Notes under the pieces: generated by a model
Database searches by the model: none
Told to the model about the DNA's origin: nothing
Seen by the model: the letters and a program-made list of their open reading frames with translations, nothing else
Made by a program: the position numbers and the translations under genes
NCBI GenBank assembly: GCA_963823505.1
Contig: CAWGLY010000008.1
Span: forward strand, 440,574 to 504,573
Length of the DNA: 64,000 nt
From: an uncultured Acidimicrobiia bacterium
Lineage (GTDB): Bacteria > Actinomycetota > Acidimicrobiia > Spongiisociales > UBA5794
Reading direction: 5' to 3'
Shown: positions 22,401-27,634 of the stretch, piece after piece
Position numbering within the stretch: position 1 is the stretch's first letter
Layout: every line of letters starts with the position of its first letter

Positions 22401-24192
22401 AGTGGTTTGGCGGTCCTGAGGTGACGGTCACCATCGACGATGATGACGACCCGGCCGAGGTGCTCTTCGAGGTCGTTCTCGAAACCGGAGACGGCGAGTT
22501 CTACGAGGGCATCGCATACGACATCGTGCCCGGCCACTACGTGGTCGTGACCGACGGCGTGTTCGCGAAATCGCACTGGGTGACCCCGCTCACCGTGACA
22601 GGCGTCGACGCCGACGCGGACATGGTGCACGGCACGACTGGGGCCGGAGCCGAGGTGTTCGTTGGTTCGGACAACGGCTCGTATCGGGTCGTCACCGCCG
22701 ACGAGAACGGCAACTGGACGGCTGACTTCTCCGTGCCGTGGGAGGACCAGGGCGTCCTCGATATCGTCTACGGCACCGGCGGATACGCCGAAGAGAGCGA
22801 CGACGACGGCGACGCCACGCATGCCGGATGGCAGGCGACAGCAAGCTCGGCAACCGTCGAGGGTCACGTCTATCTGGACGGGGCTCCGCTGCCCGACGTC
22901 GAGGTGTGGAGCTCATCCGACGAGGTCTTCACCTGCACCGACGCCGAGGGCTACTTCGTGTTCGAAGATCTCTCACCGGTCGGCGACGTGCTCGTCGCCA
23001 CCGGACCGTCCTACAGCGACGCCGGCTGCGCCAACACGGCGTTCGTCGATCCCGACGGCATGCCGTTGTTGGTCGCCGGAGAAGGTGGACTCGACCTCAC
23101 GGACGGCTACGAGTACCTCGAATTCAACGTCGAGTACGCCGCAGCCATCCAGTACGTGAGGGTCGAGGACATCACCGGCGGCAGCGCCACACCGGTCAAC
23201 GACGTCGTGATCCATGCGTTCGACCGCAACGACGAGGAGTTCATCGCCGTGTTCGGACACGATCCCGACCCGGCCGACTACCAGGCGATTCTCGACACCG
23301 GCATCGGTGAGATCCCGTGGATCGACTGGACGGGAGCGGCCCTCGACCACGAGGACGGCCTTGCCGAGGTGAGGTATCGGTACATCACCGACGTGCTCAT
23401 CTTGGCGGAGCTGGATCCGATCCAGGGCGCCACAGAGCAATGCCGACGAGTTCGTCGAGAACAACGACGGCATCGTGGAGGGACCCGAGGTGGTCTTCCA
23501 GATCGGCGAAGCCGGACCCGTCGTCACAGTCGACAGCCTCGTGCTGAACGAGGGCGATGGGGCAAGCCGTGTGCTGATCACGTTCCGGCTGAGCGAGCCG
23601 GTCTCTGAGCGGGTCACGGTCGAGTGGACGACGGCAGACGGCAGCGCGCTTGCGGGCGAGGACTACCTCGCCGCATCCGGCGTCGTCACGTTCCGGCCGG
23701 GCAGAACGGAGGTGTGGCGGAGGATTCAAGTACTCGGTGATACGGATCTCGAAGACGACGAGTCGTTCCAGATCGTGCTGCTGAGTGCCGACGGCGCCGC
23801 AGCAGGCGATCCGGGGACGATCACCCTCATCAACGACGACGAGCCGGCGCCGCCGGGGCCGGAGCTCTCGGTGGCCGACACCGAAGTCCTCGAAGGTGAT
23901 CGAGGGGCCACGCGAGTCGCCGTCACCTTCACGTTGACGGATCCGGCGCCGAGCCTCGTGTCGTTCACGGCAACGACGGTGGGCGACACGGCAATGGCCG
24001 GTGATCGACTACAGCGAGGTCGTGCGGACCGTGCGCATCAGGGCCGGGAACACCTCGGCGACGATGTACGTCAAGGTGATCGGCGACACGATTCCCGAAG
24101 CCGACGAGACCTTCACGGTGGAGATCTCGGACGTCACAGGAGCGGAAGTCGCCGACGCTTCCGGGACGGTGACGATCCTCAACGACGACTGA
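16471..24192 (+). pseudogene. Giant (~2,570 aa) secreted repeat protein with two C-terminal Calx-beta domains, broken by ~8-10 frameshifts and one in-frame TAG
   Basis: Signal peptide at 16471. Fragments continue through ORFs 16434, 17180, 17891, 17830, 20759, 23475 and 24001. An acidic module ('VTxLxITxVDxDxDTITGTA...GxWxADFS...DIxPG..G.A...DDDGDxT') recurs; Calx-beta 'EGD...TADGSALAGEDY...TF.PG...GDT..E.DE.F' at the C-terminus. The breaks may be sequencing errors. Confidence 0.75.
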
Positions 24193-24246
24193 ACACCCAG
24201 GGGGCGGGTCCCACCGATCCGCCCCCGCCGGCCGCTTCCCTCTAGC

Positions 24247-24302
24247 CCAAGTGCCGGGTACCAAGTACCAGGTACCAGGCACGAAGTACCAAGTACCAAG
24301 TA
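24247..24302. repeat. Heptamer tandem array, 8 x CCA(A/G)GTA
   Basis: ccaagtg ccgggta ccaagta ccaggta ccaggca cgaagta ccaagta ccaagta. Confidence 0.85.
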
Positions 24303-24310
24303 CGCGACGC

Positions 24311-25874
24311 TCAGCTGTCGTCGGTGGGCGGACGTTCGTCTGGGGGGATTCCGTCGTCCGGCGGTGCGAGGAGCAGCTCAACGACCGAATCTCTGAGGAC
24401 CTCCGTGCCGGCTGGCGGGCTTGTACGCGCGACGGCTCCGGCCGGCGTGTCGCCTGCCTCACCCCGTTCGAGGAATTCGCCACGGAACGCGAGCCCAGCA
24501 TCCTGAAGAACGGCGCCGGCGTCGTCTTCGGCAAGCCCCACGACGTTGGGGACGGTGACGGAGCCAGGCGGGGTGTCCCACAACCCTGCCGCGGCAAACG
24601 ATGCGACGACGACGGCGAGGGTGGCAATCGCCGCCCCGATGACGAGCGGCAGCCGGGACTTCAACGAAGGGGCAGGCGTGCGATGGGCCGCCCGTTGCGG
24701 TAGCGGAACGGGCTCCGCTGCCGCCGCCGGCCGCAGTTCGTGGGTGGGTTCGGCGGTCGGTGGTCGATCCTCGATGGCTACATCAAAAACTCGGCCATCG
24801 GCGGAACGGGAGTACAGGACAGGGATGCCCCACTCGATGTCGTTGTCGGCGCCGAAGATCACCTTGCGAGCCCGCGCCAGTGATTCGTCGACCGGCGTTC
24901 CCGCGGCGACCGCCGAGTAGAACGTGCTGGCAAATTGGATCGCAGCACGGTCCGTGATGACGAATTGCATCGCGACGACGGCAGGGATGCCCTGGCGCAC
25001 GAGAGATTGCGCTATGCCGGCGAACGGGTCCTCCGCAGAGGTGCGGGCCCCTTCGCACGCATTGATTGTCACCAGCCGCATTGTGTGGTGATCGTGGAGA
25101 AGTGTTCCCAGATACTCGCCGGACACTGGATGCGCAGAGCCGTCGGCTTTCTCGAAGAGCAGCCGCCCGTCGCGGGTCGCATCGTCGAAGGTCCCGTGCC
25201 CCAGGAAGTGGAGGACATTGAAGTCGGACTCCCACAGCGTCCGCTGCAAGGCCTGGATCGTCGGCTCATGGAGCAAGCGCAACTCGAGGAGCCCGGATCG
25301 TTCGACCCCACCCAACGCCGACTGCAAACGTGCCCATTCACCCTCGAGGTCGAGGGCCGGCAGCTCTCGCGGGCTCGCCACGACGACCAGAAGGCGCAGC
25401 GGAGGTGTCATCATCAGGGTCGCCGGCCGATGGGTCAGGTCGATGTACCGCACCACCGGCGTGTCCGTCGACAACACGAGGAATCGTCCAAGGCCGGCGC
25501 TGTAGAGGTACTCCCACGGCAGGTTGTCGAGTCGCCCGCCGTGGCCCAAGTGGACCCGAATCCTGAGACCGCTGTTTGGTCATTGCGGCGGCGTCGAGAC
25601 TGCGCCGGAAGCATGTCCGTACGTCGCCGGCGAACACCGCATCGTAGAGCCGCTGTCCATAGGCTTTGATGGCGTCGAGCTGCGGCGAGCTGCGACTCGG
25701 CCAGGCGGCGGAGGCCGCCCGGGCGCGCAAAACGACATTCTCGAATTCCAGGTGGGTGAAGGGCAGCTCGAACGTCGCGCTGGCCTCACCCGAGGGCGAG
25801 TTGGTGACCATCGCCCGATACTGTCCATCGGCTTCTTCGACACGAAGATCAAAATCGAGATACCCGGTCGGCAT
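24311..25874 (-). CDS. CHAT-domain (caspase-like) protease with TM helix and C-terminal PASTA domain (frameshift at ~25580)
   Basis: 'LDFDLRV', 'LPWEYLY', 'HFLGHG' (His), 'INACEG' (Cys), 'GIPAVVAMQF', 'WGIPVLY'; TM 'LPLVIGAAIATLAVVV'; PASTA 'VTVPNVVGLAEDDA...L..AGL...G.V..TSPPAG'. Confidence 0.85.
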
Positions 25875-25952: not shown

Positions 25953-26792
25953 TCAGCCGTCGGTCGCTGGGCTTTCGGCGGGGGGCTTCACCGCAGCACG
26001 GATCCGCGCCACCAAGGCGTCGAGGCGGTCCATGTCCTGGGTCATCTCATCGACCGCACCCGCCGCAGGCTCCTGATCGACCCTGCGGCGGACTCTGTCG
26101 AACAGCCCGGAGGCTTCCCGATACGTCGCAGTCACATCCCGATCGCCCAACAAGTCGACGGGAGTCGACAGGTCGAGAATGGGATCGGCGAGCCCGTCGG
26201 CTCGGGTCTTGAGTGCCTCCCACTCGCGTGCCAGCGCCTTTTGTTTGCGTTCGCTCGACGAGCGACGCTCGACCATGCGGCCTACAACACCCACCACCAC
26301 GAGGATCAGCAGGCCGGCGCCGATCAGCAGGGGCCAGTTGGTCGACGATTCCTCGGCAGGCTCGACGGTGATGGCACCCACGAATGCCGCCACACCGGCC
26401 GTCACGTCGAGTCCCGACAAATCGTCGCTCGCAGCGTCGATGGCGTCGTCCAGCTGTCCTTGTGACAACTCGCTGCTCGATATGCCGTACTGGGCGGGCG
26501 TGAAGACCATCACGGTCCCGGTGCGGACGGCGCCGAGTTCGTTGGCAAAACCGACCGCATCCACTGTGTCGTCGCTGAGGACGACGACGCTCAGCTCCAC
26601 TCCATTGGTCCGTGCTTCAACGACCTGCTGGCGCAGCGCAATGGCGTCGGCGGTGGCCCCGGCTTCCACGTAGACCCCTTCTACAAGCGCATCTGCGGCC
26701 TCGTCGGGGGTCGCCGCATTGGCCGGAGACGCGATGAGCAGGACGACGAAAGCCGCCCCCAAGACGGGCAGCCAGCTTCGGGTGGTGCTCAT
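25953..26792 (-). CDS. Hypothetical membrane protein (signal peptide, small extracellular domain, TM, helical C-terminus)
   Basis: 'MSTTRSWLPVLGAAFVVLLIASPANA' signal; TM 'WPLLIGAGLLILVVVGVVG'. Confidence 0.7.
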   Translation of the reverse strand: MSTTRSWLPVLGAAFVVLLIASPANAATPDEAADALVEGVYVEAGATADAIALRQQVVEARTNGVELSVVVLSDDTVDAVGFANELGAVRTGTVMVFTPAQYGISSSELSQGQLDDAIDAASDDLSGLDVTAGVAAFVGAITVEPAEESSTNWPLLIGAGLLILVVVGVVGRMVERRSSSERKQKALAREWEALKTRADGLADPILDLSTPVDLLGDRDVTATYREASGLFDRVRRRVDQEPAAGAVDEMTQDMDRLDALVARIRAAVKPPAESPATDG

Positions 26793-26854
26793 GCCGACCT
26801 TTCTTCGCTCCGTCGGCGATGCTACAACGGTCACGACCCTGAGAGGGGAGACAG

Positions 26855-27634
26855 GTGCACAAGCGAAGGGTTGCGGCGCCCGATGGCGTGAAATGGATCG
26901 TGGGTAGACGGTGGCTGCTCGATCGGCCGCGCTATATCGGCTTCCGTTTCGGCCGGCCGAAGGAGGAACCGCCGTTCGAGGCGGCAGAAGCGGCTTCACC
27001 GGCGCCACGCCTCGTCGAGCGCAAACCGGCCCCTACCCAGCAGCCGACCCCGCCGCCGGTCCGCTACCGGAACAGGACCCCGTCTGGGGTCGGTTTCCCT
27101 CGCGTGGTCTACGGCGGGTCCGGCTCACGATCGCGCACCCGTGGATCCGGCGGTCTCGGCGGGCTCCTTCGATCGTCTGGTGGCGGGAGCCGGAGCCGAT
27201 CGTCTGGTGGCGGCGGCCGCAGCCGATCGTCGGGAGGTGGGCGGCGTGGCGGTGGCGGTGGCGCGGGTGCGGCCGGAGGCATCCTCGCCGCACTGGTGCA
27301 GTTCCTGAAGTACGTCCTGGTCGCGGCGGCCATCGTGGTGGCGGCACTCATCGTGGTGTTTGTGCTGCTGCCGAGCCTGCTCTTCCTCGCCCACTACGCC
27401 GCCTTCTGGCTCATCGTTGGTGGAACCATTGTGTATAGGGCCATGACGGGCCGCCCCTGGATCGTTGAGATGGAAGAAGCGGATGGATTCCGGGTGCGGG
27501 CGTGGCGGGTGGTCGGCTGGCGGCAGTCGAAGCGAGTCATCGATCAGGTGGCCGACGCGTTGTTGCGCGGGGTCGAGCCCGTGGCCGACGGAGCTGAGGA
27601 CGTTGAGATTGTCAACCTTGCCGAAGCGAGCTGA
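26855..27634 (+). CDS. Hypothetical membrane protein with G/S/R-rich linker
   Basis: 'APDGVKWIVGRRWL' N-terminus, two TM segments, 'RPWIVE...WRVVGWRQS'. Confidence 0.6.
   Translation: MHKRRVAAPDGVKWIVGRRWLLDRPRYIGFRFGRPKEEPPFEAAEAASPAPRLVERKPAPTQQPTPPPVRYRNRTPSGVGFPRVVYGGSGSRSRTRGSGGLGGLLRSSGGGSRSRSSGGGGRSRSSGGGRRGGGGGAGAAGGILAALVQFLKYVLVAAAIVVAALIVVFVLLPSLLFLAHYAAFWLIVGGTIVYRAMTGRPWIVEMEEADGFRVRAWRVVGWRQSKRVIDQVADALLRGVEPVADGAEDVEIVNLAEAS

Follow-up and report, generated by a model that had tools for sequence, protein, structure and literature searches.

Architecture of the CHAT-PASTA gene

The 64,000-nucleotide stretch of DNA analyzed here (hereafter the window), taken from contig CAWGLY010000008.1 of the uncultured Acidimicrobiia bacterium assembly GCA_963823505.1, carries on its minus strand a gene that joins a caspase-like CHAT protease domain to a PASTA domain through a single membrane helix. 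Its product is, or was until recently, a single-pass membrane protease whose layout resembles that of HetF. From 25874 to 24311 (window numbering, as for all coordinates of this gene), the gene specifies, in order, an N-terminal domain, the CHAT domain, a Pro/Ala linker, one membrane helix, and one PASTA domain. In the assembled sequence these parts are divided between two overlapping open reading frames (ORFs) on the minus strand. ORF A begins with an ATG at 25874, preceded by GGAGG at 5 nucleotides (nt), and runs for 178 codons, of which only about the first 98 are protein-like; ORF B (25549..24311) has 412 codons. When the three frames of the gene were searched with a profile of the protease module built from 115 relatives, frame A accounted for profile positions 4-100 (E value 5e-32) and frame B for positions 100-366 (E value 3.8e-123), with one clean hand-over at position 100 and no residues lost. 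The homologues are unbroken at this site, where they read SLDxAxxxxxGLRxRL. Since the frames hand over cleanly, the relatives are continuous, and ORF B lacks a credible start of its own, we treat ORFs A and B as one gene.

The N-terminal, "constant" alpha+beta domain of approximately 98 residues (25578..25874, frame A) retrieved no Pfam match even at an E value of 10 and is recognized through the family profile. Sequence comparison shows its motifs YLDFDL, SPSGEA, LPF, and YGQRLYDAVF to be kept in homologues, and a model of the intact relative P0088 has three strands and three helices in this domain, with a predicted local distance difference test (pLDDT) score above 90. At 25700-25740, the conserved basic loop of the family (GRxRRGVRRleSPE) is replaced by RARAASAAWPSRSSPQ; the third frame reads GGLRRLAESQ there, a resemblance to the basic loop that could reflect a compensating pair of indels or chance. 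Extra compensating frameshifts in the domain were rejected as the profile score of the third-frame GGLRRLAES is not significant (-5.7 bits).

The CHAT module proper (24779..25579, frame B) is matched by Pfam CHAT (PF12770) in ORF B at 100.4 bits against a cutoff of 24 (E value 1.6e-28). The catalytic His (codon 25198-25196) lies in the motif HFLGHG and the catalytic Cys (codon 25057-25055) in INACEG, as read directly from the sequence. Both sit in invariant columns of a 48-sequence alignment, in which G127-H128-G129, N173, C175, and G177 are conserved in all 48 sequences. The AlphaFold2 model of the CHAT core has a pLDDT above 90 and is predicted to adopt the caspase/hemoglobinase fold: in Foldseek searches with this model, the SAVED-CHAT protease (8TL0; E value 2e-11, 25% identity) was followed by DdvA, MALT1, separase, Csx29, and caspases, with the matches to SAVED-CHAT, DdvA, MALT1, separase, and caspases having a probability of 1.00.

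Downstream of the protease lies a flexible, Pro- and Ala-rich linker, DRPPTAEPTHELRPAAAAEPVPLPQRAAHRTPAPS (24653..24778; pLDDT below 50), which ends in Lys and Arg residues (…APSLKSR); linkers in the family range from approximately 40 to approximately 290 residues. It is followed by a hydrophobic stretch of 19-25 residues, the single transmembrane helix LPLVIGAAIATLAVVVASFAAAGLW (24590..24652), whose mean Kyte-Doolittle hydropathy is 2.47 over 19 residues and for which AlphaFold2 also models a helix at residues 310-330 (pLDDT 84-88). The PASTA domain (24365..24559) starts no more than 10 residues beyond and is matched over positions 1-63 of the 64-position Pfam profile PF03793 at 43.8 bits against a cutoff of 23.2 (E value 2.6e-11). 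The model of its fold has a pLDDT of approximately 40-50, as the underlying alignment contains few PASTA rows. The PASTA domain matches the Mycobacterium tuberculosis PknB PASTA structures 5E0Z and 2KUF at an E value of 1e-5. A short, acidic, Pro-rich tail with the stop codon (24311..24364) completes the protein, and translation to the stop reveals no additional domain C-terminal to PASTA. An earlier, sequence-only reading of this DNA had described a CHAT domain with intact His and Cys, followed by a Pro/Ala linker, one transmembrane helix, and a PASTA domain; the Pfam matches, the directly read motifs and their invariant columns, the translation, the hydropathy, and the modeled helix agree with it throughout. 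We regard this architecture, along with the topology and family placement given below, as highly probable.

Membrane topology

To either side of the helix, the charged residues are unevenly placed: the window protein has three Lys/Arg residues before the helix and none after it. Counted over 15 residues on each side in 91 single-helix members of the family, Lys and Arg total 268 before the helix versus 109 after it (p = 6e-15); 73 of the 80 informative members have more of these residues before the helix and 7 have more after it. No N-terminal hydrophobic segment is present in the window protein or in 120 relatives, and among the 121 top sequences the membrane helix follows the module in 98 and precedes it in none. 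The charge bias, the lack of a signal peptide, and the position of PASTA after the single helix together lead us to predict a cytoplasmic CHAT domain and an extracytoplasmic PASTA domain. The two domains are thus predicted to lie on opposite sides of the membrane, as the sequence-only proposal of a wall-sensing protease had presupposed.

A constant protease module with interchangeable outside domains

Used as a query against 5.8 billion proteins, the read-through protein recovered hundreds of relatives that are 45-57% identical to it over the first ~360 residues and wholly different beyond. The family has actinobacterial and Chloroflexi-type members. The extent of the family became apparent in a HMMER scan of 1.84 billion cluster representatives with the protease module, which matched 24,765 clusters at E values of 1e-3 or lower and 5,764 at 1e-30 or lower; in the 150 best matches listed, residue 100 or thereabouts is the usual start of the module within the matched protein. 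Most relatives examined link the module, by way of a single membrane helix, to an outside domain that varies from protein to protein and is drawn from a repertoire that includes CBM9, TolB-type PD40 propellers, TPR/Sel1 repeats, FGE-sulfatase, PQQ and other propellers, SH3, and RodZ_C, and many of the parts that follow the helix carry no Pfam name. On a module tree with 72 labeled sequences, the label of the C-terminal domain switches at least 21 times, which indicates that the outside domain has been exchanged many times while the protease module has stayed constant.

A minority of the family lacks the helix and instead carries SIR2, AAA, WD40, PLD, or PAS domains. Helix-less fusions of the module were seen in P0075, P0100, P0249, P0234, and P0027; among them are TPR plus SIR2 (with a ThsA-like STALD match), SH3 plus a PLD nuclease/phospholipase, PAS, and an AAA ATPase. 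Judging from these architectures, part of the family looks like cytoplasmic effector-type proteins. The genome that harbors the window has eight CHAT-domain genes. One of its CHAT proteins, encoded on the minus strand of another contig (C5:2133583-2135938), is an intact paralogue, 49.6% identical in the module, in which a long Pro/Ala linker leads through one membrane helix to an outside domain of CBM9 type. The window protein is therefore no isolated invention; it is a rare ectodomain variant of a very large and almost unstudied family of membrane CHAT proteases.

PASTA domains were found in 8 of the 247 module proteins examined, in three layouts: the single PASTA of the window protein, PASTA combined with a TolB-type PD40 propeller in five proteins, and four PASTA repeats, in P0194 and, together with hemopexin repeats, in P0257. 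Seven homologues of the window protein thus carry PASTA, a point that the sequence-only reading had singled out for checking. On a 229-sequence tree, the PASTA label changes five times, and at least three of these changes are forced by well-supported branches, so that the family has acquired or shed PASTA on no fewer than three occasions. Searches started from the PASTA parts yielded no additional CHAT-PASTA proteins, and a literature search returned no paper linking CHAT with PASTA domains. In the collection of 5.8 billion proteins, the PASTA domains nearest to that of the window belong to Ser/Thr kinases and multi-PASTA proteins. A recent capture from a kinase of the same genome was considered and rejected, the window PASTA being only 39% identical to the best other PASTA of the genome.

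Integrity of the locus

The frameshift lies within 25571-25580, being bounded by the frame-B stop TGA at 25582-25580 on one side and by the conserved GLR, which reads from 25570, on the other. It acts as one extra base near codon 100, and this range includes a short AAA run. The sequence-only reading had likewise placed a single probable frameshift in an A-run near 25580; in this assembly, it is confirmed and confined to those ten positions. Programmed frameshifting was set aside on the sequence itself, as there is no slippery motif or long repeat at the site.

Whether the extra base belongs to the organism or to the assembly bears directly on what the gene now makes. We think it somewhat probable that it is a local assembly error, in which case the gene would specify an intact protein of 520 residues, a reading favored because single-base indels run through unrelated adjacent genes without other damage. 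The convergent gene on the plus strand, which encodes a giant adhesin, is near its end frameshifted at least twice within 2 kb of the CHAT gene. One break is marked by a 949-residue ORF that overlaps the next ORF at 23475-23608 (within 23475-24245). At the other, near 24005, a second Calx-beta domain (24001-24192) is split, TAMAGD/RLQ… being read in one frame and …DYSEVVRTVRI in the next; the Calx-beta Pfam match in the short adhesin ORF covers profile positions 55-119 of 119. A family member elsewhere also seems split in a similar assembly: at L030:5001-7563, on the contig of P0074, a 646-residue member is followed 47 bp on by a separate 191-residue ORF with a faint CBM9 match, probably a further case of a family gene broken by a frameshift in a metagenome assembly. 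The pattern in this part of the window, with many single-base indels and no other decay, is what a locally faulty consensus would leave in a metagenome bin assembled from long reads. The contrast between these neighboring breaks and 35 long genes unbroken elsewhere in the genome also counts toward a local error.

The alternative, to which we give somewhat less than even odds, is a dead gene, in which a real frameshift in a decaying accessory region leaves no full-length protein. It draws on the position of the frameshift inside a conserved strand region and on the missing start of ORF B. When ORF B is modeled alone, its first 50 residues are disordered, whereas the intact module of P0088 is modeled confidently throughout (pLDDT 92.9). 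The further adhesin frameshifts are compatible with regional decay, and the rest of the genome is clean, which argues that a globally poor assembly is not the cause: the genome (4.1 Mb in 9 contigs, 96.9% complete) has 20 of 20 full-length AMP-binding genes, 8 aldehyde dehydrogenase genes, and the 7 other CHAT genes unbroken. Sister genomes have no orthologue of the gene, and its module lies on a long terminal branch. Against decay, there is a single lesion that costs no residues, in-frame stops are absent, and the gene keeps its catalytic residues and the other invariant ones. At ~84 highly conserved columns the gene has 8 substitutions, within the range of 5-11 seen in intact relatives, so that conserved residues have not been lost in the excess that decay would leave. 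No second assembly of the gene exists in the 5.8-billion-protein collection, where the best non-self match is 57% identical. The assembly-like problems of the region, together with the uniqueness of a lone PASTA in the databases searched, might also suggest that the CHAT-PASTA junction is itself an assembly chimera, with a PASTA drawn from another gene, such as one for a PknB-type kinase. This is very improbable: the CHAT domain, linker, helix, and PASTA are read in one unbroken frame, both the linker and the helix resemble those usual in the family, CHAT-TM-PASTA proteins occur independently in other assemblies, and the identity to other PASTA domains of the genome is low, as noted above.

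Genomic neighborhood

Only ~65 bp separate the CHAT stop codon from the end of the convergent adhesin gene. A degenerate run of heptamers (GTACTTG/GTACCTG units on the minus strand; 24247-24302) fills this gap, and a GC-rich inverted repeat lies beside it at ~24200-24230. A scan of the locus for promoters and terminators gave nothing informative. Upstream, 79 bp from the CHAT gene and on the same strand, lies a gene for a 351-residue membrane protein of the Rv1476 family (25953-27008; Pfam E value 2.6e-15), which may be cotranscribed with it; this pairing was not seen beside the other family members inspected. In genomes of the same genus, the Rv1476-like flanking gene is only 29-31% identical or absent, so that no comparison with an empty site is possible. 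A scan of genome contigs returned one distant locus. No sigma factor gene lies near the CHAT gene, the nearest match of the extracytoplasmic function (ECF) type on the contig being ~58 kb away.

Ten loci were inspected in all, that of the window and nine others, and no conserved partner or substrate gene recurs among them. The sequence-only reading had found no substrate gene near the window gene, and the comparison likewise yields no conserved candidate there. In the PASTA-plus-propeller clade, the surroundings are of a housekeeping kind in three contigs, with serA, gatCAB, and LytR-CpsA-Psr genes. Divergent from the CHAT gene of this clade is a conserved gene for a 297-residue protein (L021:6971-7864, L022:6924-7820, and L023:6970-7863) that has no Pfam match and in which ExxH…ExxH motifs, typical of di-iron (ferritin-like or desaturase-like) enzymes, are discernible by eye. 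Its linkage to the CHAT gene may reflect the close kinship of the three organisms, which share a syntenic serA/gatB block. A different setting was seen on the contig of P0098 (GCA_047602545.1; L028:692-7376), where a CBM9-bearing family member directly follows genes for an Hcp-like protein, a TCAD7-CHAT protein, and two DUF7379 proteins on the same strand; this cluster is of the conflict-system type.

Proposed function and its alternatives

The explanation that we favor, at a probability of about 0.6 as a whole, is that the gene specifies a single-pass membrane protease of HetF layout that converts a cue from outside the cell into proteolysis. The conversion step, taken by itself, we hold slightly less probable than its opposite. 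In this mechanism, the outside domain would bind a component of the envelope, which in the case of PASTA may be peptidoglycan-derived material or a site of wall synthesis. Such binding could concentrate or pair protease molecules, and the resulting clustering might switch on the CHAT domains, by analogy with the ligand-driven assembly of SAVED-CHAT and of initiator caspases. The active protease would then cut itself or cytoplasmic targets, much as HetF cuts PatU3 at the division site. The sequence-only reading had proposed a one-component wall-sensing protease in which proteolysis replaces the kinase output of PknB. Of this, the CHAT-TM-PASTA architecture and the kinase-like nature of the PASTA domain stand. 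What has to be revised is its scope, as the window protein is one ectodomain variant among dozens in a huge family, most of whose members lack PASTA, and its general layout was already known from HetF and had been predicted computationally by Kaur et al. The sensing of muropeptides or lipid II by the window PASTA is pure conjecture.

Several observations weigh against the proposed protease and its mechanism. A ligand, substrate, or activity has been shown for no member other than cyanobacterial HetF, and the window protein is not an orthologue of HetF, since it scores 65.6 bits with the HetF model NF045509, far under the equivalog cutoff of 1200, with the CHAT core alone aligning. Some single PASTA domains do not bind muropeptides, and the presence of one PASTA is no proof of such binding; the outside domain might only anchor or localize the protein. 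In the databases searched, no other protein shares the exact layout in which a lone PASTA is the last domain. The conserved basic loop of the N-terminal domain is missing, and the terminal branch of the window module measures 0.73-0.79 against a median of 0.12-0.18. Moreover, three genomes of the same genus lack the gene, and a homologue of the module is present in just 8 of 41 relatives; such patchiness is more in keeping with an accessory or conflict gene than with a core pathway for sensing the wall.

The last of these points leads to the chief rival in terms of function, a conflict or abortive-infection device in which the outside domain detects an invader or damage to the envelope and the constant caspase module fires, cleaving itself or proteins of the cell, which results in the release of an effector or in cell death or arrest. 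Such a role was predicted for systems of this kind by Kaur et al. (PMC7159879, PMC8195603). Beyond the patchiness just described, the eight CHAT paralogues in one genome, the very frequent exchange of the C-terminal domain, and the fusion of the same module to SIR2/ThsA-like, AAA, WD40, PLD, and PAS domains without a membrane helix all speak for such a device; SAVED-CHAT is the top match in both PADLOC and the PDB, and one member adjoins the TCAD7-CHAT, Hcp-like, and DUF7379 cluster. Yet, the loci inspected have no consistent neighbor of the effector, gasdermin, CRISPR, CBASS, EACC1-like small membrane, TRADD-N, DUF1822, or ECF sigma kind; the PASTA-plus-propeller clade keeps to its conserved housekeeping neighborhood in three contigs; and CBM9, PASTA, TolB-like propellers, and PQQ are typical binders of the organism's own envelope or of carbohydrate. 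Ectodomains that bind the cell's own envelope and the housekeeping context of that clade favor a role in the wall or in division, just as the patchy distribution and the effector-type fusions favor a role in conflict. We judge a conflict device to be rather unlikely. Somewhat less probable still is that the outside domain is an address label that directs the protein to the wall or septum, with no sensory function, and that control is exerted from inside the cell. Many ectodomains of the family are indeed carbohydrate- or wall-binding modules, and in the case of HetF, FtsI recruits the protein, whose CHAT domain by itself can complement when overproduced (PMC8406250, PMC9457339). Against an address label, the family also uses classic ligand-binding or propeller sensor domains, and its repertoire of ectodomains parallels that of receptor Ser/Thr kinases.

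Returning to the outside-cue-to-proteolysis protease, a broader and more speculative generalization, which we advance tentatively and consider rather unlikely in its full form, is that the family constitutes a large class of "receptor caspases." These would be single-pass receptors with kinase-type outside domains (PASTA, propellers, FGE-sulfatase, TPR, and carbohydrate-binding modules) and irreversible proteolysis as their output. In the PASTA forms, those with four repeats included, peptidoglycan status would be linked directly to a caspase-like cleavage that governs division, dormancy, or death. If this were true, they would be a bacterial counterpart of death-receptor signaling. More generally, if the outside domains gate the protease, sensor domains best known from PknB-type kinases would have a second, irreversible output. 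HetF illustrates what may be at stake, in that one such protease controls cyanobacterial cell division. The PASTA variants would then offer a direct experimental handle both on the activation of bacterial caspase-like proteases and on what PASTA domains report. The window copy by itself is of limited value in this regard, given its frameshift and the lack of an orthologue in sister genomes. P0194, the PASTA-plus-propeller clade, and other intact relatives would be better subjects.

Comparison with known systems

Several characterized or predicted systems share parts of this design. One precedent is provided by the conflict systems that Kaur, Burroughs, Iyer, and Aravind predicted, in which a constant N-terminal domain and a caspase are followed by a hypervariable C-terminus (PMC7159879, PMC8195603). 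In their EACC1/EACC2-caspase systems, a prediction from genomics alone, the C-terminus is sometimes a transmembrane segment with an extracellular part, and the layout is frequent among actinobacteria and among other bacteria of complex lifestyle (PMC7159879, PMC8195603). The present family fits this description in its alpha+beta N-terminal domain, caspase, and hypervariable C-terminus, with the N-terminal domain being set beside EACC2 by description. The neighbors that define the EACC systems, namely a small EACC1 membrane gene upstream, TRADD-N, or an ECF sigma gene with DUF1822, are not consistently present in the small sample of the window and nine other loci, and PASTA has no occurrence in these papers (PMC7159879, PMC8195603).

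By both structure and sequence, the closest solved protein is SAVED-CHAT, which the window protein matches in phmmer at an E value of 9.5e-8 and as PADLOC SAVED_CHAT at 9e-15. SAVED-CHAT is a CRISPR-linked defense protease whose activated form is a filament (8TL0), and it serves as a model for activation through sensor-driven assembly. It has no membrane helix and uses its SAVED domain as the sensor, whereas the window protein has a helix and an outside domain. Pfam finds no SAVED domain in the latter, and the PADLOC match covers profile positions 101-271 of 498, which is the CHAT part. The second-best structural match (Foldseek E values 7e-8 to 2e-7) is DdvA of Myxococcus xanthus, a single-pass transmembrane anti-sigma factor with a TPR-CHAT region (8ROT, 8RW5) for which signaling across the membrane by proteolysis has been proposed (PMC11506125). 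Its orientation is the reverse of that predicted here: the CHAT domain of DdvA is periplasmic, and its cytoplasmic zinc anti-sigma domain is bound to an ECF sigma factor, while the CHAT domain of the window protein is predicted to be cytoplasmic, and Pfam detects no anti-sigma domain in this protein.

On the sensory side, the counterpart is found in kinases of the PknB/Stk1 type, which, like the window protein as predicted here, place a cytoplasmic enzyme, a linker, a single helix, and extracellular PASTA in succession. P0194 and P0257, with four PASTA repeats, come closer to PknB in this respect than the window protein with its one. The kinase model NF033483 matches the window protein over positions 318-426 of 563, which is the helix and PASTA part, at 32.7 bits against a cutoff of 450, and Pfam detects no Pkinase domain. 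The output of PknB is a kinase, and the output domain of the window protein is a cysteine protease.

In layout, the nearest studied relative of the window protein is HetF of Anabaena sp. PCC 7120, which combines a cytoplasmic CHAT domain, a membrane helix, and periplasmic TPR (PMC8406250, PMC9457339). HetF is a divisome component that binds FtsI, is required for septal wall synthesis, and cleaves or degrades PatU3 (PMC8406250, PMC9457339). The two proteins differ in that HetF is cyanobacterial and the genome of the window looks actinobacterial, judging by the Rv1476-family neighbor gene and the taxa of the closest homologues, and in that the outer domain is TPR in the former and PASTA in the latter. 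In both, an N-terminal cytoplasmic CHAT domain with its His and Cys is followed by one helix and an outer domain, and the topology predicted for the window protein is the same as that of HetF.

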